NCBI GenBank assembly: GCA_051859245.1
Contig: JBHYGA010000001.1
Span: 352,001 to 416,000 of the forward strand
DNA length: 64,000 bases
DNA from: Gemmatimonadaceae bacterium
Lineage (GTDB): Bacteria; Gemmatimonadota; Gemmatimonadetes; Gemmatimonadales; Gemmatimonadaceae
Reading direction: 5' to 3'
Both the position numbers and the translations under genes were made by a program. Shown piece after piece: positions 1-35,625 of the stretch. Position 1 is the stretch's first letter. The number at the start of each line of letters is the position of its first letter. A model generated the notes under the pieces. The model did not search any database. It was not told the origin of the DNA and saw only the letters and a list, made by a program, of their open reading frames with translations.

Positions 1-1516
1 ACTGCTTGATCACCGACCAATCTGCACCGGCCACGATCGGCGCAATCACGTGAATGCCTTTCCCGCCACTCAGCATCGGGAAACTCAGCACTCCGACGTC
101 TTCAAGCAGTGACGCCACGGTACGCGCGGCATCACGCACCGCAGAAAACCCGAGGGATTCGTCTGGGTCCAGATCAAACACAAGTCGTTCCGGATACTCC
201 ACCGAATCAACGCACGATCCCCACACGTGCCACTCCAGCGTGTTCATCTGCACACCGGCGATCAGTCCCGCAACATCGCGTACGAAAAAATACTGTTCTG
301 TGTCTCCGTTTTTCTCCGTGATGGCCACGCGTTGCATTGCTTCCGGAAACCCACCGCTGTCGTGCTTCTGAAAGAAACAGTGCTTGGCCCGACCTTGTGG
401 ACAGCGCAACAGGCTGAGCGGACGATTGGCAATGAACGGCAGCATGTGGTGAGCCACCGCGTCGTAGTATCCGGCGAGGTCCGCTTTGGAAACGCCCTGT
501 TCAGGAAAGACAATGCGATCCGGGCTGGTGAGTCGCTGATCCACGCGCGCGGCTGCGGCAACACCACGCGTGGAAAGGTCTTGTTTGTCGAGTGACACGG
601 CACGTGCAGCCTTGTCCTCGCGGAGTGCGACGAACGATGGGTGACGCAAGCGACCATCCGGCGTGAGCTCCGTGAACGCGATCTCTGCCACCAGATCGGG
701 CGTGACCCAACGCGCGCCTTTCGCGATCTCGCGCGGTACATCAGCGAAGGGGCTCGTTTTGCGCGATCGCGCATCGAGCTGTTGTTGCAACTGGTGCGAT
801 TCGTCAACGGTAAAGCCGGTGCCAACACGCCCTCGATAGCGCAGCTCGTCTGATTCCCACGTGCCAAGCAGCAGCGACGCGAACGTGTGCTTGCGTGCGG
901 ATGGCGTCCAGCCAGCGATGACCAGTTCCTGTCGCTTGCCGCACTTGATTTTGAGCCAGCTTGTCGTGCGCTGGTGCCTGTATCGATCAGTGGCGCGTTT
1001 GGCGATCACGCCCTCGTGTCCGTCGCGGCACACTGCATCGAACACCGCTTGACTGTTGCCGAGTACGTGCGTGGAAAATTGGATCGCGACCGTGGCTGAG
1101 CGCTCGCCCAGCAGGGCTTCGAGTCGTTCCTTGCGCTCGAGCAGTGTCAGCGCGGTGAGATCTTCGCCGTTTTCCTCGAGCAGGTCGAAGGCGAAGAATA
1201 CAAGCGGCGCGCCACCCTTCAGCGCGTCGGTCAGGGTGGAGAAATCTGCGCGACCATCCGGCGTGAGCGCACACACTTCACCGTCGATCAACGCCGTGCC
1301 TTGGGTGAGTGACGAAAATGGTGCGACAAGCGATGCAAACTTGTGCGTCCAGTCGTGACCGTTGCGGGTGTAGAACCGCACGTCGCGCCCGCTCACCGAA
1401 GCAACACAGCGATAGCCGTCGTACTTCAGTTCAAAGGCCCAGTCTACGCCCGCTGGAATCGTATCGGTCAGCGTCGCGAGCTGCGGGGCACGAAAAGCGG
1501 GCAGGGCGTTCGGCAT
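1..1516 (-). CDS. ligD: NHEJ DNA ligase D (ligase domain then primase-polymerase domain), runs off window start
   Basis: Not in the ORF track; translated by hand from ATG at 1516: MPNALPAFRAPQLATL...WAFELKYDGYR (ligase KxDG motif), ...DGRLRHPSFVALREDK (end of OB fold), ...FPMLSGGKGIHV (LigD POL motif). Start and end are in the same frame; lies directly behind Ku. Confidence 0.93.
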   Translation of the reverse strand, partial: MPNALPAFRAPQLATLTDTIPAGVDWAFELKYDGYRCVASVSGRDVRFYTRNGHDWTHKFASLVAPFSSLTQGTALIDGEVCALTPDGRADFSTLTDALKGGAPLVFFAFDLLEENGEDLTALTLLERKERLEALLGERSATVAIQFSTHVLGNSQAVFDAVCRDGHEGVIAKRATDRYRHQRTTSWLKIKCGKRQELVIAGWTPSARKHTFASLLLGTWESDELRYRGRVGTGFTVDESHQLQQQLDARSRKTSPFADVPREIAKGARWVTPDLVAEIAFTELTPDGRLRHPSFVALREDKAARAVSLDKQDLSTRGVAAAARVDQRLTSPDRIVFPEQGVSKADLAGYYDAVAHHMLPFIANRPLSLLRCPQGRAKHCFFQKHDSGGFPEAMQRVAITEKNGDTEQYFFVRDVAGLIAGVQMNTLEWHVWGSCVDSVEYPERLVFDLDPDESLGFSAVRDAARTVASLLEDVGVLSFPMLSGGKGIHVIAPIVAGADWSVIKQ

Positions 1517-1517
1517 A

Positions 1518-2375
1518 TCAACTGGTCTTCCGTTTGGCGGCTGTCTTGCGTGCCGTCTTCTTTACGGGTTTTGCTTTGCCGCTCGCCTCAAGGCTTCGCT
1601 TGAGTGCGGCCATGAGATCGAGCACTTTGGTTTCGCCACGCGCTGCAGTCGCTTCGCCACCGGATACGCTGACGCGCTTGCCCTTGCTTGCGAGCTTTTC
1701 GTCGATCAGCTCGCGCAATGCGGTTTGGTAGTTGTCCTTGAACGCTGCGGCATCAAAGGGCGCCGATTTTTTCTTGATCAGCGCGGTAGCAACCTCTACC
1801 ATTTCAGCATCGGCCTTCTTCGACGAAATCTGCGCGAAGAACGCGTCAGATTTCCGAATCTCGGTTTCGTAGTGCAGCGTCTCAAGCATGATGCCGGTGC
1901 CTGTTGGCTTGAGCGCCACCAGATACTCCTTACCGCGCAAGGCAAGCTGGCCGAGTCCAACTTTTTCAGACTCGCGAAGCGCATCACGGATGACACGGAA
2001 CGCATCTTCGGCCAGTTCGTCTGACGGCACCACGAAGTACGACTTGTCATAGTAGATGGGGTCGATCTCACAGGCCCCCACAAACTGCGTGAGTTCCAGT
2101 GTTTTGCGCGTTTCGAGCTTTACCGCGTTGATCTCCGCGTCGCTCAGCAGCACGTAGTCGCCTTTTTCGTACTCGAAGCCCTTCATGATATCGTCGCGAT
2201 CAACGGGGCCAATACCGGCCACCACCTTTTCGTAGTTGATCGGCTTGCCAGACGGTTCGTGGATCTGCCGAAACGAGGGTTTGGCATTGGACTTTGTGGC
2301 TGTGAAGAGCTCCACCGCGATCGACACGAGTGAGAGTCGAAGCTGTCCTTTCCAGATGGGTCGCGTTGGTGGCAT
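1518..2375 (-). CDS. ku: NHEJ Ku protein
   Basis: RPIWKGQLRLSLVSIAVEL, KGFEYEKGDYV, IDPIYYDKSYFV, DLMAALKRSL and a basic C-terminal tail. Confidence 0.96.
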   Translation of the reverse strand: MPPTRPIWKGQLRLSLVSIAVELFTATKSNAKPSFRQIHEPSGKPINYEKVVAGIGPVDRDDIMKGFEYEKGDYVLLSDAEINAVKLETRKTLELTQFVGACEIDPIYYDKSYFVVPSDELAEDAFRVIRDALRESEKVGLGQLALRGKEYLVALKPTGTGIMLETLHYETEIRKSDAFFAQISSKKADAEMVEVATALIKKKSAPFDAAAFKDNYQTALRELIDEKLASKGKRVSVSGGEATAARGETKVLDLMAALKRSLEASGKAKPVKKTARKTAAKRKTS

Positions 2376-2425
2376 GTCAGTTGTCTCGTCGCAAGTGAGA
2401 AGACCTTCGGTATCGGACTGCTCGA

Positions 2426-3472
2426 CTACAGCATTGCAATGACGGCGCTCTCAGACGCTCGTCCATAGTTCCGCGCGTACTCGACCTTGCGCTCCATCGC
2501 CTCGATCACGGTTCGCGTGAAATCGACCTTCTCAAACTCTTCAGCCGAGCCCAGGCCGCCGGGACTGAACACGTTGATCTCCATCAGCTTGTCACCAACG
2601 ATATCCAGTCCGACGAGGAACATGCCGTCCAGAACGAGCTTGGGGCGCACGAGATCAGCGATGCCGAGCGCCACATCGTCGATCTTGGCACGCTTCACCG
2701 TTCCGCCAGCGGAGATGTTGCTCCGCATGTCGCCTTCTGATCGTACACGACGGAACGCGGCAAATTTTCCATCCGTCATCAATGGCACGCCGTTCATGAG
2801 AAACATGCGTGTGTCACCCTTTTCGGCGGCCGGCAGATACTCCTGCGCCACGATGTAGCCATCACGACTGACGGCGTCGATCATCTGATTCAGATTGGAC
2901 GCATCTTCCGGTCGCACCAGAAACACACTCTGGCCACCGGAGCCCTGCAGTGGCTTCAGTACGATCTTTCCGCCTTCGCTCTTGGCGAACGCCTTGATAT
3001 CAGCGCGATCGCGGGTGATGATCGTGCGTGGGCGCACGGCTTCCGGAAAATCCTGGAAATACATTTTGTTGAGCGCGCCGAGCAGCCCATCGGGGTGATT
3101 CAACACTACAAGCCCTTGCCGCATCGCGCGTCGACAGAACACAACGCCCGCCTGAGCGGCCCAGGGCCGTTCAATGGCATCGTCCGATGGGTCACTGCGC
3201 AGCAGGACCACGTCGAGCTCGGACAGCTTGATGCGCTCGACTTCGGCCTTTGGGCCGCGGAGTGCAGCCAAATACGATTCGCCCGATGCGTATTTCTTGC
3301 CAGGCGCCGCATGTGCGCGGGCCATGATGCTTGCGTCGACATCGTAGCCGAAGTCGGCGACACCGATGTAATACGCCTCGTGCCCCATGCTCAGGGCGGA
3401 GAGGGCCAATCGTGTGGTGGTGTAGTTGTCGATTTCTGTTTCCAGCTCGTTCACAACAAAGCCGATCTTCAT
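2426..3472 (-). CDS. Glutathione synthetase-like (GshB family) ATP-grasp ligase
   Basis: LDVVLLRSDP, NKMYFQDF, VLKPLQGSGGQSVF, QEYLP...GDTR, RSNISAGG, GLDIVGDKLMEINVFSPGG; start overlaps the upstream stop (ATGA). Confidence 0.88.
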   Translation of the reverse strand: MKIGFVVNELETEIDNYTTTRLALSALSMGHEAYYIGVADFGYDVDASIMARAHAAPGKKYASGESYLAALRGPKAEVERIKLSELDVVLLRSDPSDDAIERPWAAQAGVVFCRRAMRQGLVVLNHPDGLLGALNKMYFQDFPEAVRPRTIITRDRADIKAFAKSEGGKIVLKPLQGSGGQSVFLVRPEDASNLNQMIDAVSRDGYIVAQEYLPAAEKGDTRMFLMNGVPLMTDGKFAAFRRVRSEGDMRSNISAGGTVKRAKIDDVALGIADLVRPKLVLDGMFLVGLDIVGDKLMEINVFSPGGLGSAEEFEKVDFTRTVIEAMERKVEYARNYGRASESAVIAML

Positions 3473-5424
3473 GGCGCGGTCTCGGTGAGAATTTGAATGA
3501 GTGATTGGCTTTGCCGCAGACGCTGCATTCTGGTCTCAGCGCCGAACGCCGTGAGAAATCGTGGGGTAATTCGTGGTGGTCGCAAATATTCGCGCCACCG
3601 CAGCTCCTGAACCGCTGGCACATCGGCAAGCGCGAGTTTTCCCAGCAACAAGGGTTCGAGTTCGCCGCCAGCGCGCAGATACGAGAGAAACTCCTGCAAC
3701 CCTCGCAGGTAAATCAGATCCTTGGTGAGTCCACCGCTGCGGTACACGCGCATGCAGATGGTGAACGCCGTGTTTGGCGCGAAATCGTATTCGTTGGTGA
3801 GCAGACGGTAGCAGTCAACAAACGGTGCGCCGTCCACGAGCGCACGTACGGCAATCACTCGTCCGGCCAGCACGCGAACGCGACTACCGGTGAGCGCACC
3901 GGTCAGATACTCCGACGTCACGGCGAGCCCTTCCTGCGTTTCTTCGTAGCCGGCCAACCCGCTCGCAAGCTGGCTCAGCGGCTGGGCAAGTCCGTTCGAG
4001 TAGGTGACCACGTGCGTGCCAATCTCATGCTGCACAAGCGCTCGCGCACGCGTTGGTGTAACGCGCAGTGAATGTCCAATCAGCAAGTCACCCTCAGACA
4101 CGAGTACGCCGGCCACATCGGTGCGAATGTGCACCCTGGCGTTCAGTCCGGCGTATACGCTTCGGTAGTGCGATAGCTCGTCTTCGGCCATCGCGGCAAA
4201 CCCCGTTGCGGTGACCACACCTTCCGTATCCGGCGCGTCATCGTCGTCATCGTCCGCACTCGTTCGCTCGGAAACGCGAAGCAGCGTGACCGCTAACTCG
4301 TGTAATGCGTCACTGACCTCGCCGTACACGGAAAGACTACCATACATAAATCGCGACGTGTTGCGGTCGCCCAGCATCGTGAGCTTCCGCGAGAGTTCAC
4401 CGCGACACGCTGACAAGAGATTGGCAAGCGTGGGGTCCTCAAGCTGCTCCAACGGAAGATTGTACAGTCGACGTTTGAGCGAGGCGACGTCAACGATGAG
4501 CGGTCGATAGTCAAACTCCGGATCGCGATCTGCTCCATCGCGCATGAACTGCGCACGCGCACGGTCGGCGTTCACCGGTGTGACTTGCAGCAGGAAGTCG
4601 AATGATCGCGAGATCTGTGTGAGCGCTGCATCGGCTTCTTGCACCGCACGCACCGCGGTGCGACGACCCAGTGCGTGAAAGTGCGACGGCTCGAGCGCCG
4701 TATGCAGTTGCACGAAGTGATACGCCGTTTGCCGAATGGCCAGCGACATGCCGCGCCGGAGCGTCTCGAACAACACCGGGTACGGTGTGCCGGTGCGCGC
4801 CTGCCGATACACGGGTTGCACTTCGATGCCAATCGCGGTGCAGCCACCGGTATGCTGTCGAACACACGTCAGGAGCTCACCCAGCGTGGGCGGAGACGGT
4901 GATCCGTGTGTGTCCACTTCAACGTCCAGCGGTGGTGGCCGCAGCGGTATGTTGCTGAGTGCCTTCCGCAATGCGCGTACGGTTGGATCGTCGGCCGGCA
5001 ACACGGGCGACACGATCCGAAATGTGGGGTCTGGTACTTTGCGCGCCGCGTCCACACCTTCGCGTCTTGTTTCGGCCGTCCATACTTCGAGCAGCAGAAA
5101 CTCGCCGAACTTCTCCACCATCACGTCGGCGATGGCGCTCACCAGTTGCTGAAGTCGAGCATGAAGCTCCAGGCTGCCTGGTGCAATCAGGTGGGAGGCC
5201 TCACCGATGATCATCTGCGACGTCGGGCCCACGGTATCCTGCGCCGGCTCGCGATACACACACAGAAATGGCAACGCGCGGTCAATGTGCAGTCGACCTC
5301 CTCCGGGGAGCGAACGACGCACACCATGCCCCTGTCGCAGCCGTTCACACACCTGCGCAATGAACGCCGGCGTGATACGCTGTCGCGCCGAAATCGAGTT
5401 GTTCGTGGTGGCGATGTCGGGCAT
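3469..5424 (-). CDS. QEGLA-motif (DUF1704, MATCAP-like) zinc metallopeptidase
   Basis: HEIGTH zincin-type motif followed by YEETQEGLA; RVYRSGGLTKDLIYLRG. Confidence 0.9.
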   Translation of the reverse strand: MPDIATTNNSISARQRITPAFIAQVCERLRQGHGVRRSLPGGGRLHIDRALPFLCVYREPAQDTVGPTSQMIIGEASHLIAPGSLELHARLQQLVSAIADVMVEKFGEFLLLEVWTAETRREGVDAARKVPDPTFRIVSPVLPADDPTVRALRKALSNIPLRPPPLDVEVDTHGSPSPPTLGELLTCVRQHTGGCTAIGIEVQPVYRQARTGTPYPVLFETLRRGMSLAIRQTAYHFVQLHTALEPSHFHALGRRTAVRAVQEADAALTQISRSFDFLLQVTPVNADRARAQFMRDGADRDPEFDYRPLIVDVASLKRRLYNLPLEQLEDPTLANLLSACRGELSRKLTMLGDRNTSRFMYGSLSVYGEVSDALHELAVTLLRVSERTSADDDDDDAPDTEGVVTATGFAAMAEDELSHYRSVYAGLNARVHIRTDVAGVLVSEGDLLIGHSLRVTPTRARALVQHEIGTHVVTYSNGLAQPLSQLASGLAGYEETQEGLAVTSEYLTGALTGSRVRVLAGRVIAVRALVDGAPFVDCYRLLTNEYDFAPNTAFTICMRVYRSGGLTKDLIYLRGLQEFLSYLRAGGELEPLLLGKLALADVPAVQELRWREYLRPPRITPRFLTAFGAETRMQRLRQSQSLIQILTETAP

Positions 5425-6216
5425 TCAGTCGCCTACCTGATGCAAGGACTGCTCCAGCTTGGGCACAAGCAGCGCCAGCGCGTCGCGAATCGCTCGAACG
5501 TGCCCGGGATACGGTTCGCCGGTCCACTCATCCATAAACGATTTGCGAAACTCGATCGAGATCGAGCAGGCGTGTTCGCGGAACGTGCGGTGCACCCACT
5601 GCGAGAAGTGGCCACCTTTGAACTTGACGTTCTCTCGGACGTCGAGCGTGCGGCCAAGCATGTCGACCGATCGCAAGTGTTGCACCACGCAATCCACCAC
5701 CGGTGCCCACCGAACACGATCCATGCTGCCCGTGCCAATGTTCACTTCCGGGTTGGATGCTTCGTCTGCTGGCGGCGCATCGACCCCATCACGACGATGG
5801 TTGTAGCTGTGCAGGTCCAACACCACGAAGTGCCCCCACTGCTGGCGCATCTGCTCCAATGTTTCGGTCGCCGCGGCGTAGAACGCATCGTACTGCGCGA
5901 GCGATTCGGCGATCATCTCCGGCGTCGGGGGTTCGCGCCAGACGCGCAGCCCCCATGCGTCCTCCGGCGTCTGATACACGGCTTTCTCGCGCGGTCGATT
6001 GAGGTCACATTCGAATCGTGAGCGCAGGCCGATCAGGCGTGTATCGACGACGTCGACCCACTGCGCCGTGTACGGGTCCTCTTCCCGCAGACGCTCCGGC
6101 TCGCTGAGTGCGATCGCGTCGCGCACGGTGTCGCGCAACGCGTGGCCGTCATGTATGGCGGCCGTGGCGACGGGAACGTCATGTCCGAGGTGAATAGCGA
6201 AGCTGTTCGTCACCAC
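5425..6216 (-). CDS. N-formylglutamate amidohydrolase family protein
   Basis: AAIHDGH, REEDPYT, SRFECDLNRP, VLDLHSYN, EVNIGTG, ENVKFKGG, SIEFRK. Confidence 0.88.
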   Translation of the reverse strand: MVTNSFAIHLGHDVPVATAAIHDGHALRDTVRDAIALSEPERLREEDPYTAQWVDVVDTRLIGLRSRFECDLNRPREKAVYQTPEDAWGLRVWREPPTPEMIAESLAQYDAFYAAATETLEQMRQQWGHFVVLDLHSYNHRRDGVDAPPADEASNPEVNIGTGSMDRVRWAPVVDCVVQHLRSVDMLGRTLDVRENVKFKGGHFSQWVHRTFREHACSISIEFRKSFMDEWTGEPYPGHVRAIRDALALLVPKLEQSLHQVGD

Positions 6217-6348
6217 AGAGTCGACACCGCCCGTAAGAACGTGTTCCCATGAGTGTGAGGCGTGTCACGAACGAAACTGTCGCCCTCGGGCTTCGGGAAC
6301 GGTTCAGTGCAACCTTCCGCATTGTCGTGGAAGCCGTATGTTAGAGCC

Positions 6349-6789
6349 ATGAGCGTTTTCGAAGGCCTCACCCGCCGGCGCTGGTTGCTCACCATGCTGT
6401 CCGCCAGTCTGAGCGTGGTTCCGCGCGCGCTGCGCGCGCTGCCTTCGCGTGCGCTGGCTGCGCGTGCGCGCACGGACCACCCAACGCCGCGACGTGGCAT
6501 CACGGGCGCCAGGGTGGCCACGCCGGCCATGCTCGACGGCGACGCTGTGCTGATTGAGCTCTTCGACGCCGTCAGGGCGATTCCCGCAGTGGTCGACGGC
6601 ATTCGTTGTCACTGCGGATGCGCTGACCTGCACGGGCACTATTCGCTGCTCACGTGTTACGAAGGCGCGAACGCGATGGCCCGGATCTGCCCGATCTGTC
6701 AGGGCGAGGGCCGTGTTGCCGTGCGTATGGCAAAAGCTGGTCGCTCGCTCGCTGATATCCGGATTGCGATTGACGCGCAATACGGCTGA
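6349..6789 (+). CDS. PCYCGC-motif family Cys-rich exported protein
   Basis: RCHCGC...HYSLLTCY...ICPICQGE...IRIAIDAQYG; N-terminal TRRRWL Tat-like signal. Confidence 0.72.
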   Translation: MSVFEGLTRRRWLLTMLSASLSVVPRALRALPSRALAARARTDHPTPRRGITGARVATPAMLDGDAVLIELFDAVRAIPAVVDGIRCHCGCADLHGHYSLLTCYEGANAMARICPICQGEGRVAVRMAKAGRSLADIRIAIDAQYG

Positions 6790-6823
6790 ACATGTGCTGA
6801 CTCACCGCCAAACGTCGAGACCA

Positions 6824-7732
6824 ATGCTTCGCCATCTGACCGCACGCCTGCTGTCGTTCAGCATCGCATTCGTTGTGCCTCCCTCTGCCGCCTCGGCGCA
6901 GATCAGAGCCAGCGAGTTGCAAAGCATCTCGCAGATCGTGGACGGCACGAAGGTGACCATCGAATACTCGCGACCACGTTTGCGCGGACGTGATGTGGTG
7001 TTTGGGACCCGCGCCGTGAAATGGGGCGAAGTGTGGACACCGGGCGCCAACTGGGCGACGACGCTTGAAACAGATCGCCCGATCATGCTGTCGGGTGTAC
7101 GCGTGCCCAAGGGCAAGTACGGGCTCTGGATGATCGTGCAGCAGGATTCGTCGTGGACCATGTTGCTCGATCCTGTGTGGCGACAGTTTCACATGGATCA
7201 CCCCAAGCCGTCTGATCGTCACATCAAGGTGACGGTGAAAGCGGATTCAACCGCAGCGTGGAGTGAGGAAGCGCTCACGTTTTCCTTTCCGTCGGTAACC
7301 GCGCGAGGGGCCACGATTGCCATGCACTGGCATCGCATGCGCATCAGCATGAACTACACCGTGGAGCCAACACTCAGCGAGATGCTGCCTGAGTCAGAAG
7401 CGGCGCCGTATCTTGGACGGTATGCGTTAACGGGCAATCCTCCCGACACGACAACGGCCGCGCTCATTGTCTCCTACGAGCGTGGCGGCTTGAAGGCGCG
7501 TTTTGAGCCGGAAGACACATACATGCAAACGTTTGCGCTCATGAAAGTAGCGCCTGGCATCTTCACTGCGGGCCTGTACATGGCCGCCGAGGTCTTTGCG
7601 GCGGGCGAAATCTACGAAGTGATGCGTCCTGACTTCATGCTCACGTTCGCGGAGAAAGATGGTGTCATGCAGTTCGAAGTGCGTGGCAGCAAAGATGAAC
7701 TGTATTTTTCAGGTCGTCGAGTCGCCAAATAG
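6824..7732 (+). CDS. DUF2911 domain exported protein
   Basis: Signal peptide, then QIRASE...VTIEYSRPRLRGR...VWTPGANWATT...GKYGLW. Confidence 0.8.
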   Translation: MLRHLTARLLSFSIAFVVPPSAASAQIRASELQSISQIVDGTKVTIEYSRPRLRGRDVVFGTRAVKWGEVWTPGANWATTLETDRPIMLSGVRVPKGKYGLWMIVQQDSSWTMLLDPVWRQFHMDHPKPSDRHIKVTVKADSTAAWSEEALTFSFPSVTARGATIAMHWHRMRISMNYTVEPTLSEMLPESEAAPYLGRYALTGNPPDTTTAALIVSYERGGLKARFEPEDTYMQTFALMKVAPGIFTAGLYMAAEVFAAGEIYEVMRPDFMLTFAEKDGVMQFEVRGSKDELYFSGRRVAK

Positions 7733-7777
7733 GCGCTCGCGTTGTCCAACGGATCTACCTCAAGGAACGAACCGCTC

Positions 7778-8401
7778 ATGTTGCGCACTTCGATGCTTGC
7801 CGCGCGTGTGTTGTCGATTATGACATTGGCAGTTTCAGCAACACTCTCACGTGTCCCTGACGCCGTCGCGCAGGCAGCGGCAGTACCGAAGGCCGCATCG
7901 CAGATTGCCGCCGCCACGCTTCCGCTCCCAGAAGCGATGCGCGCCAATGCAACGGTGCTTGGCTATCGTTCGGTCGGTCGTCTTGAAATTTTGCGGCAGG
8001 GCAATAACGGAATGACGTGTCTCGCGCACAATCCGGCCGACGTGGATCGGTTTCACGTGGCCTGTTATCACGAGTCACTCGAGCCGTTCATGGCACGCGG
8101 GCGTATGTTGCGCGCGCAAGGCATGAGCGCGTCGAAGGTGGATACCGTTCGCTTTGCGGAAGTGAACTCGGGCCAACTGAAAATGCCACGGTCAGGTGCG
8201 CTCTATTCACTGACCGGCCCGGCCGGAGATTTTGACGAGGCCAAAGTTGCTGCGCCAAAATCACGTCTGCTGTTCGTTGTCTACATGCCGGGCGCCACGC
8301 AGCAGTCCACAGGCTTGAGTACGATTCCGCTCGCGGGGCAGCCGTGGCTGATGCTGCCGGGCACACCAAAAGCGCACATCATGTTTACGCAGTCCATGTG
8401 A
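7778..8401 (+). CDS. Hypothetical secreted protein
   Basis: Signal peptide; co-oriented with neighbours; C-terminal PWLMLPGTPKAHIM. Confidence 0.65.
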   Translation: MLRTSMLAARVLSIMTLAVSATLSRVPDAVAQAAAVPKAASQIAAATLPLPEAMRANATVLGYRSVGRLEILRQGNNGMTCLAHNPADVDRFHVACYHESLEPFMARGRMLRAQGMSASKVDTVRFAEVNSGQLKMPRSGALYSLTGPAGDFDEAKVAAPKSRLLFVVYMPGATQQSTGLSTIPLAGQPWLMLPGTPKAHIMFTQSM

Positions 8402-8455
8402 TGTGATCACGTCCCGTGTGTTCGAGCGTATCGTGCAACACCAGTCGGTGTTGAC

Positions 8456-9601
8456 GTGACCACACACGTCGCGCGCTGGATTCACTGCGCCGCGCTGGCT
8501 GCGCTGGCGCTCGCTTCGATGAGCACGCAGGTCCAATCGCAGAACGCTCCTGCGGCGCCCGCACGTAACGCGGAGCCGCCGCTGCAGTGGCACAACGTGT
8601 CGGAGTGGGGGGTTGAAGGACGCGCGTGGCCGGCGCTCGAACGCAGGCGATGGTACGACCGCTTCCCGGCGCAGGCGGAAGCTACGGTCACGCCGGCCGT
8701 GTGGTCACTCAGCCGCCACAGTGCCGGCATGCTCGTGCGTTTCAAAACGAATGCTGATGCGATCTGGGCAAACTACACATTGTTGAACGCGCAGCTCGCG
8801 CTGCCAAACATGACGGCGATTGGGGTGAGCGGCCTCGATCTGTACGCGCGCGACGAGAACGGGAAGTGGCGATGGGTCGGCGTGACGCGGCCATCGTCCA
8901 AGGTCGTGCGCCAGCGCATGATCGAGCGATTGGCTCCAGGAACGCGCGAGTACGCCATCTACCTGCCGCTGTACAACGGTATCGACAGCTTGTCGATCGG
9001 GGTACCAGTTGGCGCATCGTTCGAGCGGATGGCGCCGCGCACCGAGCGACCGATTGTGTTTTACGGCACGTCAATCACACACGGCGCGAGCGCGTCGCGA
9101 CCGGGAATGGCCCACGTCGCCATTCTCGGGCGTCGCCTGGATCGGCCTGTTGTGAATCTCGGCTTCTCAGGCAACGGCCGGATGGACGCCGCTGTTGGCG
9201 AGTTGTTGGCCAAGGTCGACGCCGCCGTGTACGTGATCGACTGTCTGCCAAACATGGACGCAGCAGCGGTGACGCTCAAATGCGTTCCTCTGGTCAAACA
9301 GATCCGCGCCGCGCGTCCCAACACGCCGATCGTGCTGGTTGAGGATCGTCGGCAGACCAACGCGTGGATTCTGCCAACGCTCACCCAGTTCCACACCGAT
9401 AATCACGCTGCGCTGCGTGCCTGCATGGCTGCGTTGCAAAAAGACGGCGTCACTGGTCTGTACTACCTCACCGGCAATGAACTGCTCGGCGACGATGACG
9501 AAGCCGCGACCGATGGCTCGCATCCGAGTGATCTCGGCATGGTGCGGCAAGCGGACTGGTTTGAGCCGGTGCTGCGGAGGGTGCTCGCGGGGCGGAACTG
9601 A
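8456..9601 (+). CDS. SGNH/GDSL hydrolase with N-terminal GxDLY domain
   Basis: SGLDLY, FYGTSITHG (block I), NLGFSGNG, DGSHP; signal peptide. Confidence 0.88.
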   Translation: MTTHVARWIHCAALAALALASMSTQVQSQNAPAAPARNAEPPLQWHNVSEWGVEGRAWPALERRRWYDRFPAQAEATVTPAVWSLSRHSAGMLVRFKTNADAIWANYTLLNAQLALPNMTAIGVSGLDLYARDENGKWRWVGVTRPSSKVVRQRMIERLAPGTREYAIYLPLYNGIDSLSIGVPVGASFERMAPRTERPIVFYGTSITHGASASRPGMAHVAILGRRLDRPVVNLGFSGNGRMDAAVGELLAKVDAAVYVIDCLPNMDAAAVTLKCVPLVKQIRAARPNTPIVLVEDRRQTNAWILPTLTQFHTDNHAALRACMAALQKDGVTGLYYLTGNELLGDDDEAATDGSHPSDLGMVRQADWFEPVLRRVLAGRN

Positions 9602-9639: not shown

Positions 9640-10242
9640 CTACTCGTTACCGTCGCCGTACGATCGCACGAAGTCCACTTCAAGACGAAAGGGCCCGTCC
9701 TGCCCATCGGCCATGTACAGCCCGAGCCCCCGGATACGCGCCACCTCGATCGGCGGCGCGTTTACTGCCTGCCCGAAGACGGTGCTTCGGAGCGCGCTGA
9801 ATGGCACGCGCACAATCGTCCACTCGGCCGACGTGGCAAACGGGGCACGCCTCGATACCATTCGGCCGTATGTCCGTAAGCCGTCGTCGAGCTCCACCTC
9901 AAACTGTCGGCCACTGCCGCGCACTCGCAGTTCGATCCCCAACTGACCGGTCAGGTCCACGGCGCGCCGCGCCCGCACCGAGGTGAAGCCGCCCCCCTGC
10001 GTGACCAGCGTGCCGGTGAAGCGCAGCGTGCCCTCGTCGATCGCGACGAACCCCGCCGAACGGCCGCCCATGACCCCGTCGTTCACCACGTCCCACTCGG
10101 CCTCGTCGGCGCGGTCGAAGGTGAAGAGTGTTACCGGAGCAGACATAGGCACGGTTTCCGAGACGGGACGGTGACGCTCGGCGAATGCGCCAAGCACCAT
10201 CATCAGAGAGGGCAAGAGCAGGAAGTGCATCGCAGCATGCAT
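9640..10242 (-). CDS. CIA30 family protein
   Basis: WDVVNDGVMGGRS, GGGFTSVR, VRVPFS, DGPFRLEVDFV. Confidence 0.88.
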   Translation of the reverse strand: MHAAMHFLLLPSLMMVLGAFAERHRPVSETVPMSAPVTLFTFDRADEAEWDVVNDGVMGGRSAGFVAIDEGTLRFTGTLVTQGGGFTSVRARRAVDLTGQLGIELRVRGSGRQFEVELDDGLRTYGRMVSRRAPFATSAEWTIVRVPFSALRSTVFGQAVNAPPIEVARIRGLGLYMADGQDGPFRLEVDFVRSYGDGNE

Positions 10243-10373
10243 ACAGCGAGAAAGCGGCGCGAGGCTGGTCAGGTTCCCGTAACCCGCTTGACGCGTGCGT
10301 GGAGTTCCTCAGTTCATGTGCCGCCGCACGTCGTCTCACACGAGCAAGAGCGTGCGTCCGGAGCGCAGTGCCG

Positions 10374-10844
10374 TCAGTCCTCCGCCAGCCGGAGTTTCAT
10401 TCCCACGTGTGTGGCCTCGAAGCCGAGCCGCTCGTAAAAGCGTTTTGCATCGGCGCGCGTATTGTCGGTGGTGAGCTGTACGAGCGCACAGTTCGCGTCT
10501 TTTGCGCGCTCAATAGCGTCGGCGACAAGCGCTTCACCTATGCGGGCGCCGCGATGCGTAGCGGCAACCCGAACGCCCTCAATCTGCGCGCGCGACGCGC
10601 CGAGTCGACTGATGCCAGGAATGACTGTCAACTGGAGACAGCCCACCACTTCACCGTCGACAATGGCAACGAGCAACACGTTGCCCGTTTGCGATTCCAT
10701 TGCGGCGAACGCGGTGTGGTACGCATCCGGCAGCGGATCAGCGTATTGCTCACGCGTTGCACCGAGTGGGTCATCTGCGAGCAGACGGACCACGGCTGGC
10801 AGATCGAGTGCCGTGGCGCGACGAATGTGTGCAGCGTTCAACAT
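10374..10844 (-). CDS. GNAT N-acetyltransferase
   Basis: IEGVRVAATHRGARIG, VQLTTDNTRADAKRFYERLGF. Confidence 0.9.
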   Translation of the reverse strand: MLNAAHIRRATALDLPAVVRLLADDPLGATREQYADPLPDAYHTAFAAMESQTGNVLLVAIVDGEVVGCLQLTVIPGISRLGASRAQIEGVRVAATHRGARIGEALVADAIERAKDANCALVQLTTDNTRADAKRFYERLGFEATHVGMKLRLAED

Positions 10845-10929
10845 GCGACTGGTTGTGTGGGTGTACACAATACGCCGCTATGACGGCGAGTCTGGAGGTT
10901 CGCCAACGTGTGCCAGGGGCTGAAGCGAT

Positions 10930-11337
10930 TTATCCAGCTGGTGAGGCCTCGCTCGAAGGTTTCGGAGTAAGCGCAACAAAAAGGAGCCACGCAACACCGA
11001 GTCCAAGCAGCGTCGCGACGATGTCGTCCAGGTCAAACACCAGCGTTCGACTCGACTGCTGTATGAACTCCCACGCAATCAGCGCCAGTCCTGCACCAAG
11101 TGTGATGAATACAAACGCGCGGCGCGCATCTGCATATGAAGCGTCCGTTTTTTGGTCTGCCCAGATGCTCAGCAAGACAAATGAAATGGCAATCGCCGCC
11201 GCCACGTTTGGCATCACGCCCATCAGGTACATCACGATCTCCGGACCATCGTACCGCGACGTGCGACCCCAGTGCACGAGGCTCAGCAGGCCGAGCGCGG
11301 CGATTCCGGCAAACGCATAGCGTGTCGCAGGCTTCAT
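10930..11337 (-). CDS. Hypothetical membrane protein (about 4 TM)
   Basis: Hydrophobic segments; WEFIQ...FDLDDIVAT VanZ-like pattern. Confidence 0.6.
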   Translation of the reverse strand: MKPATRYAFAGIAALGLLSLVHWGRTSRYDGPEIVMYLMGVMPNVAAAIAISFVLLSIWADQKTDASYADARRAFVFITLGAGLALIAWEFIQQSSRTLVFDLDDIVATLLGLGVAWLLFVALTPKPSSEASPAG

Positions 11338-11396
11338 TCGACGGTTTCCTTACCGCGGACGGCCAGCGGATTGCGCGCGCATGTTTCGCGACGCGT

Positions 11397-12038
11397 TCAC
11401 GGCGCCCGGTCCCTCAGGGTGGCCAGCATCTCCGCCGACGTTCGCTCATCGCCACGTGTTGACAGTGCGTGCGCCGCACTGGTGAGATCTCGCAGTTCCT
11501 TGTTCTGACCCAACTTCCACTTGCCAACGATTTTGTCGATGCTGATTTCAATGCCAACAATCGCGGTGAGCAGGTGATCGATAAACTCCTTTGACGAATC
11601 ACCCATGCGCCACGGGCGCTGTTCGCCTACGCGGGCTTCGTGCGTCTTGGTCTGACGAGCCACGATCATGCGGACAAATTTTGCATCATCGCGTACGGTG
11701 ATTCGCCCATGCACGTGCACGGCTTGATAGTTCCACGTGGGCACCTGCTGGTGGAACTCATGCTTGCTCGGGTACCAGTTGGGCGAGATGTACGCGTCTG
11801 CCGCGCGAAAAATCACGAGTGCTTCATCGCCGTCCCGCGATTCCTGCCACACGCTGTTGGCGCGTGCCACATGCGCCAGCAGCACCTGTTTGCCGTCCTG
11901 CTCATGTAACTCAAACGGAATGTGGTTGGCGTCGAGCCCGTCGGCACCGTTTACGACCAGCACGCCGAGCGGGAACTCGCGAATGATGCGATGGAGCTCC
12001 TCCTGTCGATGCTCTTCGAAATGTTTGGGGATGTACAT
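11397..12038 (-). CDS. PaiB-like FMN-binding negative transcriptional regulator
   Basis: MYIPKHF, AHVARAN, YISPNWYPSK, VPTWNYQAVH, GKWKLGQNK. Confidence 0.9.
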   Translation of the reverse strand: MYIPKHFEEHRQEELHRIIREFPLGVLVVNGADGLDANHIPFELHEQDGKQVLLAHVARANSVWQESRDGDEALVIFRAADAYISPNWYPSKHEFHQQVPTWNYQAVHVHGRITVRDDAKFVRMIVARQTKTHEARVGEQRPWRMGDSSKEFIDHLLTAIVGIEISIDKIVGKWKLGQNKELRDLTSAAHALSTRGDERTSAEMLATLRDRAP

Positions 12039-12050
12039 GCGGCACGTGGG

Positions 12051-12563
12051 TCAGCTGTGTTTGGATGCACGATTCTTGCGATCCCATGGTAGGGCTGTCT
12101 TTCCCAGCAATACCTCCTCAACTTGTGAAACACGCGCGGCTCGCGTTTCCGCGCGCTTCGCCGATGCGACCATGTGAGCGAGTCCGCGTTGTTTACCGGC
12201 GCTCAGCGCGTCCCACGCTTTTTTCACCCGTGCTTTTTTCGAGAGCAACGCGGCGAGCTCTTCGGGCACGTCCACATCGTCTTGCGGCAACACGCGAAAC
12301 CACACTTCCACGCTGCTTCCCACTTTGAGTCCTGCCGCTTTTAGCGACGCCTTCGGCAACATCAAGTACCATTTGCCGCGCGCCGGTTGCCATGCTCCTT
12401 TCACCGGCACGCCTGACACGTCTGCCTCAATGCGTAGTCGCGCGTGTTCGTGCAGCGGTAGTTCGCTGTGCAGCGATGGGTCGAGATACACAACCGTGTA
12501 GTGATACGTGCCGACGGCATGGCGAGCGACGCGAGTTTCGAAGTGATGCGTGAAGTACGACAT
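12051..12563 (-). CDS. DUF1905 / YdeI-OmpD-associated family protein
   Basis: VDVPEEL...AWDALSAGKQRGLAHMVASAKRAETRAARV. Confidence 0.8.
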   Translation of the reverse strand: MSYFTHHFETRVARHAVGTYHYTVVYLDPSLHSELPLHEHARLRIEADVSGVPVKGAWQPARGKWYLMLPKASLKAAGLKVGSSVEVWFRVLPQDDVDVPEELAALLSKKARVKKAWDALSAGKQRGLAHMVASAKRAETRAARVSQVEEVLLGKTALPWDRKNRASKHS

Positions 12564-12634
12564 GTGACACCCTGAGTCGGAAACAAGGAGCCGTTCGGCG
12601 CCGGGCGCGCAGCCGAACTAAGCTCGCATCTTCT

Positions 12635-13851
12635 TCAGCGCGACCGCAGTGCGTGGAACTGGGAGATCGCCGTGTACACCCCGAGTCCCACACCCTCCGC
12701 CCACTGATGCGGCTCGACCAAATGATGCGTCAAAAATACCATCGCGGAACCATCGGCAGGATCCGCCTGCCACCATCCGCCCCACGCACCTGGCCAGCCG
12801 ACGGTACCTAGATGGCCGGCACACAATGTCGCGGAAGCGTGCTCCGGCTCCATGACCACCGCGACTCCCATGCCATAGCCGTGTCCGGACGCAAAGATGG
12901 GCACACCGAAAATGTTGGCCGATGTTCGCTGGGTCGGCGTGAGCTGATTGCTCGTCATCATCGCAACGGTTGAGATCGCAGCAGTTGCACGCCGTCGACG
13001 CTTCCGCGATTGAGGAACAGACGAGCGAACGTGAGATAGTCGCCCACCGTCGACCACAGTCCGGATCCACCGGATACGTACAACATGTCGTCTGGCCGTT
13101 CGGGCACGGTCGATGAACCCGTGGCAACAGTTCGGCGTGACAACTGTCCTGCGTCATTGAATCCATACAGCGCGGCACGACGGTGCCACTGCTCGCGCGG
13201 CACAATAAAACACGTATCGAGCATGCCCAGCGGCTGGAAGATCAACTCGGCTAGCACATCACCGAGCGGTTTGTTCGCGATGCGCGCGATGATGAACCCC
13301 AGCAGGTCTGTGGCGTGGCCGTACGTAAAGCTTGTCCCCGGTTGTGCAATGAGCGGCAATGACGCGAGCGCCGCGATCCATGCATCGGGTGCAACATGGC
13401 TATCCACTTCGCCGCCCAGCGCGTTCGCGAACGCCGAGCGGAGCGGCTCCGGATGAAACGCGCCGTACGTGATGCCTGCGCGTTGTGTGAGCAGATCGCG
13501 AAACGTGATCGCCCGCTGCGCGCGAACTGTGTCAGTGAACGGACCATCAGGTGAACGCAGCACACGAGCGTCGGCGAACTCCGGCACCCAAGGCGTGATG
13601 GGATCGTCGAGCGCAAAATGTCCCTGCTCGTGCAACATGAGTGCGGCAGCGCACGTGATCGGTTTCGTCATTGACGCGATGCGATAGATCGTATCGTGTT
13701 CGGCCGGTAAGCCTGCCTCAATGTCGCGAAAACCGACGCCAGCGGCGTGCTCAATCACGCCGTTCCTCCAGAGGATGGAGGATGCACCCGCCAGGGCGCC
13801 CGCGTGGACGCTTTGGTTTAGAGCGGCGGTGATGTCATTGGTAATGGGCAC
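12635..13851 (-). pseudogene. Serine hydrolase (beta-lactamase family) split by a 1-bp frameshift near 12970
   Basis: 5' frame has IASMTK (SxxK) and FTYGHATD; 3' frame continues TVAMMTSNQLT...GYGMG...GWPGAWGGWWQADP. One extra base at CAA^CCG joins them. Confidence 0.8.
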
Positions 13852-30594: not shown

Positions 30595-30701
30595 GAAGGC
30601 GCGTCACGGGGCCTTGAGCCCGGGTTTCTTGAGCCGTGTCCGCTTTCGGGCGGGTTTCGCGCCTCAAGCGTGAACCCTCAAGCCACGAGGCACGTTTTCT
30701 C

Positions 30702-31898
30702 ATGTCCCGCCGCACTCTGCCGTTCGTCGCCGTCTCAGCTTTTTGTGCTGCACTCGCAATCGCCGTCCCAAGTGAGGCTGTCTCCGCTCAGGAGAAGGCC
30801 CCGCTTATCGACCAGGATATTCGGGCCTCGGCGTCGTATCTCCGATACTACGCGTCCCCGTCCCCATTCGTCCGCAGTGCTGTTGGTACATCATGGGATC
30901 GCACGGTGTACGTCGCTGATCCAACGGCCTCCGTCTCGGGAATTTCCTGCGCGCTGTTCCTCGTGACGTGGTCGCAGTGCGTAAACAACCCGAATGACCC
31001 GTCCGTCAGTCAGTTCGAGTTCGGGTCCGCAGGAGCCGAGACGAATACGGCTGGCGAGTTGGTGTCCCGACAGATCCAGACGACGCCGCTCAGCGGCAGC
31101 GTAAACCGCCCCACGGAGGGATCGGCGTCTGCGAAGGCAGAAACAGAAATCGGCAGCAACAAGGTTTTCGCAGCGGCGCGCGGCGGCTTTGAACGCGAAG
31201 TCTTCTTTCCGTCGTACATCAGTTTCCAAAACGGCGGCTCAGGCGGCAGCGAAAAAGATGAACACCTCTGGTTGACAGGCGCGGCGATCAGTATCTGGTC
31301 GGACACCTTTACGCCCGACTTTACCGGCACGATGACGATCGGACTCAGCTCGTATCTGCATGGTAGTGCTGCGGAAGAGACGTCATACCTTGGCGCGCTA
31401 CCGTCGGGTGCGAATCGTCAGGCGGAATCCAACCTGCAGTTTGGTGTCTTCGACCCAACGCAAAAAACGTATTACGGCAGTGAGTTCAGCTACGAGTTTG
31501 ACTACAGCACTTTCAACGAGGGCATGCGATGGGTGACTGGCCTTGCCGCGGACTTCAGCGGCTTACCGTACGGTCTGTCGCCATACGCGCTGACGTTTGA
31601 TGTAATCGCCGGTCGCACCTACACAATGGTGATGAGTCTCGATGCAACGGCAGGGCAGAATGCGTTGATCGATCTGTTCGGGACATCGAAGGTGGACTAT
31701 TTCGAGGTCCCAGACGGCGGTGCTGTTGCCTTCGGCGGGGGAAGTTTCGCGCTGCGTAACGCGGGTGACGGCGATCCCGACGATGGCGGTCCGATCGACG
31801 GCGGGCCCGTGTCCAGCGTGCCTGAGCCCTCGATGGCGGCGCTACTCGGGGGCGCGCTGATACTGCTGCTGTTGCAACGTCGGCGCCGCGCAACATAG
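30702..31898 (+). CDS. PEP-CTERM sorting domain surface protein
   Basis: Signal peptide; Ser/Gly/Thr-rich body; C-terminal VPEPS + hydrophobic helix + RRRR. Confidence 0.9.
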   Translation: MSRRTLPFVAVSAFCAALAIAVPSEAVSAQEKAPLIDQDIRASASYLRYYASPSPFVRSAVGTSWDRTVYVADPTASVSGISCALFLVTWSQCVNNPNDPSVSQFEFGSAGAETNTAGELVSRQIQTTPLSGSVNRPTEGSASAKAETEIGSNKVFAAARGGFEREVFFPSYISFQNGGSGGSEKDEHLWLTGAAISIWSDTFTPDFTGTMTIGLSSYLHGSAAEETSYLGALPSGANRQAESNLQFGVFDPTQKTYYGSEFSYEFDYSTFNEGMRWVTGLAADFSGLPYGLSPYALTFDVIAGRTYTMVMSLDATAGQNALIDLFGTSKVDYFEVPDGGAVAFGGGSFALRNAGDGDPDDGGPIDGGPVSSVPEPSMAALLGGALILLLLQRRRRAT

Positions 31899-35424: not shown

Positions 35425-35625
35425 GCATTCAGCTCGATCACGGTTAGCGGATCGAATCTTGTTACGTCCCAGAACGGGTAGGCCGCCTTGCATGCGGTAC
35501 TCGCCGAAGGCAACTCGCGTCAGGGACCAGCGTTTTCGCTGCGAACGGAATGGCGTCTTGCGCACCGCGTGATCTCGCCCGATGTTCGCACATCGACCAA
35601 TGTCTCCTCTCTTCCGGACGTCAAT

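Follow-up and report, generated by a model that had tools for sequence, protein, structure and literature searches.

What might a GshB-like ATP-grasp ligase, a relative of the eukaryotic tubulin carboxypeptidase MATCAP, and a formylglutamate amidohydrolase (FGase)-like protein do together in one bacterial operon? To our knowledge, no function has been assigned to the bacterial relatives of MATCAP. In the window, i.e., the whole 64-kb stretch of DNA analysed here, the three genes lie on the minus strand and encode the FGase-like amidohydrolase (P0001, 5425..6216, 263 aa, GTG start), the QEGLA/MATCAP-like protein (P0002, 3469..5424, 651 aa), and the ligase, of the PRK12458 subfamily (P0003, 2426..3472, 348 aa). 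The tight coupling described in the initial annotation is present: the TGA of the FGase-like gene (5427-5425) abuts the ATG of the QEGLA gene (5424-5422), an abutment spanning 5422..5427, and the QEGLA and ligase genes share an ATGA start/stop overlap at 3469..3472, as read from the sequence. The same annotation had found no glutamate-cysteine ligase gene (gshA) in the window, and none of the 59 window ORFs (55 of at least 170 aa, plus 4) matched this family in Pfam; because the window is only 64 kb long, this absence says little. None of the three operon proteins matched the PADLOC anti-phage defence models.

Linkage of the three genes across bacteria

Of 583 related loci, the 80 closest were used to count linkage; these are the nearest relatives of the long-form QEGLA protein, distant QEGLA proteins being outside the scope of this count. 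The sample spans about 15 phyla, as counted from the record titles. By tblastn, an FGase-like gene was found in 77 of the 80 loci and a ligase gene in 78, and the complete set was present in 75, with order and strand unchanged in 72 and both intergenic gaps below 350 nt in 67. In the five loci missing one partner, three cases are real absences within the available DNA (L076 without the FGase-like gene, L049 and L055 without the ligase); two of the three FGase misses, L005 and L019, have contigs that begin inside the QEGLA gene. The three-gene linkage is far beyond chance, so that the co-occurrence on which the initial annotation depended is borne out, and the interpretation of the three genes as a conserved functional unit is supported.

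Around this unit, no fourth gene was conserved in the 80 loci, the next commonest ORF cluster being present in 17 loci at scattered positions; likewise, no exporter, regulator, or precursor-supply gene was conserved nearby, and no small ORF was conserved beside the operon outside the genus Pontibacter. Among the three operon proteins, the ligase is conserved best, with a median identity of 61% to 75 loci, and it occurs as tandem paralogues in two loci (two ligase genes in L011, three in L028).

The QEGLA protein: a MATCAP-family peptidase with an additional domain

The peptidase domain (3511..4551, minus strand; residues 292-638) matches Pfam PF08014 (MATCAP/DUF1704) with 295.5 bits against a cut-off of 27 (E 7e-88) and scores 316.3 bits, under the cut-off of 338.65, on the QEGLA hypothetical equivalog TIGR02421. 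Its HEIGTH sequence, a HExxxH zinc-binding/catalytic motif (4012..4029, minus strand; residues 466-471), and its QEGLA motif (3922..3936, minus strand; residues 497-501) are both intact and align to HEIGTH and EEGLA of human MATCAP. The family profile aligned to human MATCAP (7z5g) with the HExxxH motif in register (E 1.3e-7), and the AlphaFold model (pLDDT 89.5) matched the same structure in Foldseek at E 3.3e-8 and TMt 0.65. HE(V/I)GTH is present in 80/80 loci and QEG(L/I)A in 79/80, and H466, E467, H471, and E498 do not vary across 58 homologues, the Glu of the QEGLA motif presumably being the third zinc ligand. Altogether, Pfam, profile alignment, and fold confirmed the earlier assignment of this protein to the MATCAP family, as a true gluzincin with an intact HExxxH...E site, and carboxypeptidase activity is predicted from the motifs and the fold. 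In the available text of PMC10499314, MATCAP-family members take off C-terminal Tyr and then Glu, and the only enzymes of the family that have been characterised act on protein tails.

The present analysis adds a new result, namely, that the QEGLA protein begins with a degenerate FGase-like domain of ~260 residues (4639..5424, minus strand; about residues 1-262), as seen in both profile and fold comparison, on a moderate match. Pfam returned nothing for this region at E values up to 10. By hhalign, residues 54-231 aligned to residues 78-252 of the FGase-like family with a probability of 89.9% (E 1.7e-6), versus at most 1.5% in three control comparisons, and Foldseek with the full QEGLA-protein model retrieved 2q7s (E 1.3e-3, TMt 0.42). 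Where the FGase-like family has its DxH motif, this domain carries an invariant E113-x-W115, and it is probably noncatalytic. Its family comprises 852 representative clusters at E<=1e-3, and most of the proteins are 620 to 660 aa long among the 150 best-scoring of these clusters. Short-form QEGLA proteins share the catalytic domain and motifs of the window peptidase, which differs from them by its ~260 extra N-terminal residues; the only short-form gene examined, in Pseudoalteromonas (426 aa), lacks the N-domain as well as FGase or ligase neighbours. In one database ORF, an FGase part is continuous with the N-domain, and in another the end of an AbgT transporter runs into it; no fused form was found among proteins of >1140 aa, which is weak evidence.

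The FGase-like amidohydrolase

The product of the first gene matches Pfam PF05013 (FGase) with 78.7 bits against a cut-off of 28.9 (E 9e-22). Its AlphaFold model (pLDDT 94.4) has 2q7s as best Foldseek match (E 1.2e-13, TM 0.71), followed by 2odf, PghP, bacterial M14 CCP-like enzymes, CCP5 (low similarity, E 1.9e-3), and YndL. Thus, fold and Pfam family are common to this protein and HutG (2q7s, 2odf), and the nearest folds beyond the FGases are those of glutamyl amide bond hydrolases (PghP, YndL, CCP5, and succinylglutamate desuccinylase). Residues invariant in 27 homologues include H22, D47, D71, N73, R74, D134, H136, and E222, and the protein is probably an active metal-dependent hydrolase with the N-formylglutamate amidohydrolase fold, as predicted from sequence and model. 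HutG itself was considered and rejected, with 32 bits on the equivalog model TIGR02017 against a cut-off of 278.75; a sequence search of the PDB did not find the HutG structures, and no histidine-utilisation family was present in the Pfam matches of the 55 window ORFs of at least 170 aa.

The ligase is not a canonical GshB

Pfam detected GSH-S_ATP (2e-49) and GSH-S_N in the ligase, whose full-length identity to E. coli GshB is ~30%. The two proteins share a two-domain ATP-grasp architecture, and the conserved ATP-grasp segments align (1gsa, E 1.8e-35), so that the ligase looks competent; at 348 aa, it is longer than GshB (~315 aa) and has insertions in the N-terminal domain and the flexible loop. 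The subfamily scores set the two apart: the window ligase passes the PRK12458 model (NF009110; 439.4 bits, cut-off 408) and fails both GshB equivalogs (204.1 versus 272 on NF003573 and 186.3 versus 299.05 on TIGR01380), and reciprocally the canonical Sinorhizobium meliloti GshB, taken as a control, passes both equivalogs (458.5 and 413.6 bits) and fails PRK12458. On this latter model, the S. meliloti pSymB paralogue scored 501 and the extra ligases of L028 scored 426 and 474. A tblastn search against plasmids gave two identity bands, at 46 to 51% and at <=36% (60 rows sampled across 165 matching records). Hence, the operon ligase belongs to a separate subfamily (PRK12458); unlike GshB, it is linked to two hydrolases.

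Two other assignments were tried and rejected. RimK-family alpha-L-glutamate ligase models gave 66.1 bits against 143.4 (TIGR00768) and 36.5 against 331 (NF007764), and at E<=0.01 the Pfam matches were GSH-S_ATP, RimK, and GSH-S_N only, TTL not being among them. By these scores, the ligase is a GshB/RimK-clade ATP-grasp enzyme and not a TTL. Models for ligases that add glutamate to cofactor tails, such as MptN, also gave weak scores, below their cut-offs.

S. meliloti carries the same operon on pSymB along with a canonical gshB in the same genome; the pSymB orthologue is 47% identical to the window ligase, and the operon is intact in strain 2011. In the available text of PMC7063052, GSH was absent by HPLC in the S. 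meliloti 2011 gshB (SMc00419) mutant. This is indirect evidence that the pSymB counterpart does not replace gshB for GSH supply; alternatively, the pSymB operon could simply be silent in culture.

Proposed model

We propose, tentatively and with somewhat less than even confidence, that the three genes encode one self-contained cytoplasmic module in which residues are added to a terminal carboxylate at the expense of ATP and removed by two hydrolases. It is from the linkage that we infer a substrate common to the three enzymes, which would be encoded elsewhere or would be a metabolite. The ligase would activate the terminal carboxylate as an acyl phosphate and then attach an amino acid, in a single step or in several rounds; where a lineage has two or three paralogues in tandem, several kinds of residue may be added. 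The metallocarboxypeptidase of the MATCAP type would strip residues from the same C-terminus, and the FGase-type amidohydrolase would cut a bond that the carboxypeptidase cannot, e.g., the innermost acyl-amino-acid (acyl-Glu-like) link, so that the two hydrolases together could fully reverse the ligation. The pseudo-FGase domain would most likely serve to bind this same acyl-amino-acid moiety. By analogy with the fold neighbours and the eukaryotic relatives, the added residues may be acidic. Nevertheless, a ligase and opposing hydrolases in one operon would make a futile cycle unless regulated, and the gene set is explained equally well by a biosynthetic pathway that includes steps of maturation or recycling.

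Such a pathway is the first rival to be weighed: the operon would make a small cytoplasmic peptide or acyl-amino-acid metabolite (e.g., a compatible solute, a thiol-free glutathione analogue, or a cofactor tail) that the hydrolases mature, proofread, or recycle, no protein being modified. We regard it as possible, if on the whole doubtful. Where the family models name a characterised member, it is an enzyme acting on small molecules (GshB in the case of the ligase, HutG in that of the FGase), the sub-cut-off scores with MptN-like ligases and the high conservation of the ligase across phyla are in its favour, the tandem ligases of L011 and L028 suggest stepwise oligopeptide assembly, and a carrier or precursor gene was not found linked. 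It is opposed by the protein tails that are, in the available text of PMC10499314, the substrates of the only characterised MATCAP-family enzymes, by the unusual ratio of two hydrolases per ligase, and by the lack of a conserved exporter, regulator, or precursor-supply gene near the operon in the 80 loci. The operon could also serve the salvage or catabolism of imported or damaged acyl-glutamates or short acidic peptides (e.g., N-acyl amino acids or p-aminobenzoyl-glutamate-like compounds), the hydrolases freeing the amino acid and the ligase reattaching or reusing the product. The FGase fold neighbours do free Glu from acyl-Glu compounds, an AbgT gene lies ~2 kb from the short-form QEGLA gene of Pseudoalteromonas, one database ORF spans an AbgT end and the N-domain, and the rhizobial copies adjoin transporter genes. 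However, these transporters differ (ABC in one copy, MFS in the other), neither the 80 loci nor the window yielded an AbgT homologue, and catabolism can do without a ligase that consumes ATP, yet it is the ligase that is conserved best among the three proteins. We consider salvage distinctly improbable.

Taken at face value, the public annotation would make the ligase a second glutathione synthetase, with hydrolases turning over glutathione or gamma-glutamyl peptides. The two Pfam GshB domains, the identity to E. coli GshB, and the name glutathione synthase/synthetase in five annotated rhizobial records agree with this reading, which we nevertheless judge very improbable. Known glutathione degradation involves gamma-glutamyl transferase and ChaC-type enzymes, families that differ from the operon hydrolases. 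Moreover, because of the reciprocal subfamily scores and the GSH-less S. meliloti gshB mutant, the ligase is very probably not a glutathione synthetase, as the initial annotation had suspected, and its public name is probably wrong.

Relation to known systems and significance

RimK and RimB, which in Pseudomonas add a glutamate tail to ribosomal protein S6 and remove it, are a precedent for a bacterial ligase and peptidase that together act on a protein tail. There, an ATP-grasp enzyme from the same broad clade and a peptidase that undoes its ligation share one operon, but the operon ligase falls well below the RimK family cut-off (66 bits versus 143), RimB is a retropepsin-like protease whereas the operon peptidase is a gluzincin, and the RimK/RimB system has no FGase-like partner. 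The tubulin-code enzymes (TTL/TTLL, MATCAP/TMCP, CCP) offer a second comparison, in that an ATP-grasp ligase extends a C-terminus and hydrolases of two kinds shorten it again, a logic that may, by analogy, also be that of the operon. Pfam family, HExxxH...E site, and fold are common to MATCAP and the operon peptidase, and the FGase-like enzyme has the carboxypeptidase-like fold of CCP5, at low similarity. In contrast, the operon ligase is in the GshB/RimK clade and not a TTL, MATCAP has no pseudo-FGase domain, and the operon unites all three genes and has no tubulin link. The writer/eraser cycle first suggested for this locus by analogy with tubulin tyrosination therefore stands in part: the conserved unit, the true MATCAP-family peptidase, and the non-GshB ligase argue for it, and the clade of the ligase departs from the TTL parallel.

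A bolder version of our model, which we think unlikely, sees in the operon a forerunner of the tubulin code, in which the GshB-like writer would extend the C-terminus of a conserved cytoplasmic protein, encoded outside the operon, by one or more residues, probably acidic, the MATCAP eraser would trim the tail, the FGase/CCP-fold eraser would remove the last residue, and the pseudo-FGase domain would read the modified tail. If so, a reversible ATP-driven protein C-terminal code would exist in at least 15 bacterial phyla.

Our study indicates that, in hundreds of species, bacterial MATCAP relatives appear to be tied firmly to a second hydrolase and an ATP-grasp ligase. The name glutathione synthase or synthetase in the rhizobial records, if wrong, would distort metabolic reconstructions for these organisms, and the pSymB operon of S. 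meliloti makes the question directly testable in a tractable model. Should the operon prove to tail a protein or a cofactor reversibly, it would represent a new regulatory chemistry in bacteria and would also hint at the origin of the eukaryotic tubulin detyrosinase.

Three coupled genes in the window and their surroundings

The three genes are arranged head to tail on the minus strand of the window, beginning with the FGase-like gene (P0001; 5425-6216, 263 aa, GTG start; Pfam FGase, 78.7 bits), followed by the QEGLA gene (P0002; 3469-5424, 651 aa; Pfam MATCAP/PF08014 over residues 292-638, 295.5 bits) and the ligase gene (P0003; 2426-3472, 348 aa; Pfam GSH-S_ATP, GSH-S_N and, more weakly, RimK). 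The TGA stop of the FGase-like gene (5427-5425) lies directly against the ATG of the QEGLA gene (5424-5422), and an ATGA at 3472-3469 is common to the QEGLA and ligase genes. On the same strand, the HEIGTH motif occupies residues 466-471 of P0002 (window 4012-4029) and the QEGLA motif residues 497-501 (window 3922-3936). With these ORFs, junctions, families and motifs, the initial annotation of three coupled genes was right in every particular. It had also reported no gshA in the window, and indeed none of the 59 ORFs compared with Pfam matched a Glu-Cys ligase family, a result of little weight as it covers 64 kb only. The nearest protein relatives place the source organism in the Gemmatimonadota.

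Downstream (3') on the same strand, the operon is followed by a Ku gene (1518-2375; TIGR02772, 290 bits) and then by a LigD-like gene (2-1516) with ligase and primase-polymerase domains, which extends past the window edge. Together they are a bacterial nonhomologous end-joining (NHEJ) pair, and no Ku gene was found in any of the 80 related loci described below; the pair therefore falls outside the module. On the 5' side, the closest genes are divergent, on the plus strand. A 130-aa minus-strand ORF (6210-6602) overlaps the start of the FGase-like gene and looks like a shadow of the opposite plus-strand ORF (6262-6789), which has a PCYCGC domain (E = 7e-7). If the plus-strand start at 6262 is real, only ~45 nt separate it from the predicted GTG start of the FGase-like gene. 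No Rfam family matched window positions 1-9000, promoter and terminator patterns near the operon were no more frequent than expected by chance, and none of the three operon proteins matched the anti-phage defence models of PADLOC.

Elsewhere in the window, three long plus-strand ORFs of 947, 492 and 420 aa (55867-58707, 35488-36963 and 30636-31895, respectively) lacked Pfam matches at E <= 1e-5. A lipid desaturase domain gene (PF10520) and a 424-aa ORF with a fatty acid hydroxylase domain (51882-53863, minus strand), which overlap by ~100 nt as called, may be a lipid-modification pair.

A three-enzyme module conserved across phyla

Genome contigs, with one genome per species, were scanned with a profile of 15 homologues of the long form of the QEGLA protein, i.e., the form carrying an N-terminal domain of ~260 residues. 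At least 604 stretches matched, of which at least 583 encode a relative; the best 80 were retained together with flanks of up to 8 kb, and partner genes were sought in them by tblastn with the window proteins. As these loci are the nearest relatives of the long form, the counts describe the long form only. Among these best 80 of at least 583 loci, the FGase-like gene was found in 77 and the ligase gene in 78; all three genes were together in 75, in the order FGase-like, QEGLA, ligase on a single strand in 72, and with both gaps below 350 nt in 67. The co-occurrence that the initial annotation had singled out for checking thus holds in nearly all of the loci kept. Across these loci, the ligase had a median tblastn identity of 61% to its window counterpart, the FGase-like protein one of 53% and the QEGLA protein one of 42%.

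Two of the missing FGase-like genes (L005 and L019) are due to contigs that start inside the QEGLA gene, and one locus (L076) truly lacks the FGase-like gene within its bounds. The ligase gene is truly missing from L049 and L055, where an SDR gene and a metallo-beta-lactamase-fold gene come next instead. Gene order is rearranged in L064, L071 and L077, and an MgtE gene is inserted in L043. Counted from record titles, the best 80 loci represent ~15 phyla: Gemmatimonadota, Acidobacteriota, Planctomycetota, Bacteroidota including Ignavibacteria, Chloroflexota, Calditrichota, Poribacteria, Myxococcota, Verrucomicrobiota, Actinomycetota, Desulfobacterota, Dadabacteria, Latescibacteria and Proteobacteria, plus one unclassified bacterium. 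With opposite-strand shadow ORFs set aside, the 80 loci share no conserved fourth gene, the next ORF cluster being present in 17 loci at scattered positions on either strand, and the remaining clusters mostly reflect synteny within the genus Pontibacter. We also considered a small linked peptide acting as carrier or precursor, as LysW and RiPP precursors do, but no ORF of 25-89 aa was conserved beyond Pontibacter in a blastp comparison, a method that is weak for very short peptides. Altogether, the three genes constitute a conserved three-enzyme module.

Two loci carry additional ligase genes. In L011 (Gemmatimonadota; 3118-5272), an extra paralogue separates the QEGLA gene from the usual ligase gene, and in L028 (Phycisphaerae; 9917-13149) three ligase genes follow the QEGLA gene in tandem. 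The ligase paralogues of both loci are 55-59% identical to P0003, the inserted ones are 68% identical between the two loci and form a group of their own, and the two extra L028 ligases pass the PRK12458 model of the GshB-like subfamily. These tandem paralogues suggest that residues of more than one kind are added in some lineages.

A degenerate FGase-like domain in the QEGLA/MATCAP carboxypeptidase

The family profile of P0002 matched human MATCAP in the PDB (7z5g, 7z5h and 7z6s; E = 1.3e-7), and the HExxxH and (Q/E)EGLA motifs coincide in this alignment; a PDB search with the single P0002 sequence gave no match. MATCAP was also the top PDB match in Foldseek (E = 3.3e-8, TMt 0.65) of the AlphaFold model of P0002, built with 58 homologues (pLDDT 89.5, pTM 0.88). 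P0002 scored 316 on TIGR02421, below the cut-off of 339. HE(V/I)GTH is present in all 80 and QEG(L/I)A in 79 of the best 80 of at least 583 loci. According to PMC10499314, TMCP1 (MATCAP) removes the C-terminal Tyr of alpha-tubulin and then a Glu, and is inactivated by E281A in its HExxxH motif, while TMCP2 is inactivated by E329A and E364A, 35 residues apart. The same spacing of 35 residues separates the HExxxH Glu from the EEGLA Glu in the MATCAP alignment. By its motifs, the carboxypeptidase site of P0002 is intact. Among bacteria, a QEGLA-motif gene of Photobacterium damselae changed 27.5-fold in expression between salinities in a table of PMC10308900, and the same table lists a hypothetical protein gene four locus tags away at 18.6-fold.

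The N-terminal third of the QEGLA protein brings a new point. Residues 1 to ~262 of P0002 had no Pfam match, even at E values up to 10, and no usable match in the ESM Atlas, yet the domain is conserved throughout the long-form homologues. In profile-profile comparison, its residues 54-231 align to residues 78-252 of the operon's own FGase-like family (probability 89.9%, E = 1.7e-6, 169 columns), whereas three control comparisons reached probabilities of at most 1.5%. With the full-length P0002 model, the first Foldseek match beyond zinc-peptidase-like folds was the N-formylglutamate amidohydrolase 2q7s (E = 1.3e-3, probability 1.00, TMt 0.42), followed by other enzymes of its fold. We conclude that this third is a degenerate FGase-like (pseudo-FGase) domain. 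Where the FGase-like family has its invariant D134-x-H136, the N-domain shows an equally invariant E113-x-W115 in the alignment, from which we infer that part of the metal site has been lost and that the domain has a putative binding role.

Searched against 1.84 billion proteins, the N-domain profile matched 852 representative clusters at E <= 1e-3, and most of the 150 best-scoring ones are 620-660 aa long. In one of these database proteins (P0130, 528 aa), the end of an FGase domain (residues 15-145) precedes a pseudo-FGase domain (196-436), through either natural fusion of the first two genes or read-through in an assembly; no fused form above 1140 aa was found, which is weak evidence. The one short-form gene examined, from Pseudoalteromonas (426 aa), has neither the N-domain nor an FGase or ligase neighbour, so that the operon and this domain seem to occur together. 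In Pseudoalteromonas donghaensis (L084, 2363-3958), an AbgT gene (p-aminobenzoyl-glutamate transporter family) lies ~2 kb from a short-form QEGLA gene, and in a metagenomic ORF (P0175) the C-terminal end of an AbgT protein runs into a pseudo-FGase domain. A link with this transporter was dropped after a search of the 80 loci and of the window for AbgT homologues came back empty.

A ligase subfamily distinct from glutathione synthetase

P0003 passes the PRK12458 model (NF009110; 439 bits, cut-off 408) and fails both GshB equivalog models, NF003573 and TIGR01380 (204 against a cut-off of 272 and 186 against 299). The same operon is carried by the pSymB chromid of Sinorhizobium meliloti and by large replicons in other rhizobia, where the products are named N-formylglutamate amidohydrolase, QEGLA motif protein and glutathione synthase. 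In a tblastn search of the plasmid collection with P0003, identities fell into two bands, 46-51% for the operon paralogues and at most 36% for canonical gshB, as taken from 60 rows sampled over 165 matching plasmid records. The canonical S. meliloti GshB encoded on a 3.7-Mb replicon (L085; CP090106.1) served as a control: it reached 458 and 414 bits on the equivalog models but no more than 222 on PRK12458. Reciprocally, the pSymB paralogue scored 501 bits on PRK12458, and just 213 and 206 on the two equivalog models. The 3.72-Mb record CP090106.1 is named 'pSymB' in the plasmid collection; as it is chromosome-sized and has the canonical gshB aboard, this label appears wrong.

The whole 3.8-kb operon of strain RCAM1750 is present in S. 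meliloti 1021 and 2011 (100% cover, 99.3% identity), with all three ORFs open in strain 2011 and a ligase 47% identical to P0003. In strain 2011, according to PMC7063052, a mutant with the chromosomal gshB (SMc00419) disrupted by single crossover had no glutathione (GSH) by HPLC. With the operon intact, its ligase thus supplied no glutathione under those conditions, although a silent operon in culture is another possible explanation. The reciprocal scores define a subfamily distinct from GshB; taken with the mutant, they support the earlier suggestion that the ligase may not make glutathione and render the public name glutathione synthase very doubtful. The conserved ATP-grasp segments of P0003 align with those of Escherichia coli GshB (1gsa; E = 1.8e-35), and on this basis P0003 looks catalytically competent.

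The FGase-like enzyme

P0001 scored only 32 bits on the HutG model (cut-off 278.75), and no histidine-utilisation family was among the Pfam matches of the window. Its structure model (pLDDT 94.4) matches the FGase structures 2q7s (E = 1.2e-13, TM 0.71) and 2odf; a PDB sequence search with P0001 and its family profile retrieved no FGase entry. The next fold matches are to enzymes of a carboxypeptidase-like fold that hydrolyse glutamyl or acyl-glutamate bonds, namely PghP (phage poly-gamma-glutamate hydrolase), YndL, bacterial M14 CCP-like carboxypeptidases, CCP5 (the tubulin branch-point deglutamylase), succinylglutamate desuccinylase and aspartoacylase. Among the residues invariant in 27 homologues are two His along with several Asp, Glu and Arg, as would be expected of an active enzyme.

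Proposed mechanism and alternatives

We tentatively propose, with somewhat less than even confidence, a mechanism in which the ligase would extend a terminal carboxylate in an ATP-dependent manner, the MATCAP-type enzyme would trim the product from its C-terminus, the FGase-type enzyme would cleave the innermost acyl-amino-acid bond, and the pseudo-FGase domain would hold the same acyl-amino-acid moiety.

What is extended and trimmed can be weighed from the relatives of the three enzymes. GshB and HutG, to which the ligase and the FGase-like enzyme are respectively related, act on small molecules; those relatives of the peptidase that have been characterised all act on protein tails. A small molecule is a possible substrate, on the unlikely side in our estimate. 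That the substrate is a protein tail, as in the writer/eraser cycle resembling tubulin tyrosination that the initial annotation had proposed, seems unlikely. A salvage or catabolic role of the module is quite improbable. Were the ligase simply a glutathione synthetase, its low scores on the equivalog models and the GSH-less mutant of strain 2011 with its intact operon would be hard to account for, and we give this reading very little credence.

The pairing of an ATP-grasp ligase with a peptidase is a known theme, and Iyer, Abhiman, Burroughs and Aravind (Mol Biosyst, 2009) may already have listed this neighbourhood. We found no description of the operon, of the long-form protein or of its N-domain in the full-text literature, a corpus that leaves most subscription journals outside its coverage. 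The proposed cycle of extension, trimming and cleavage would be accessible to direct testing, since S. meliloti carries the operon.
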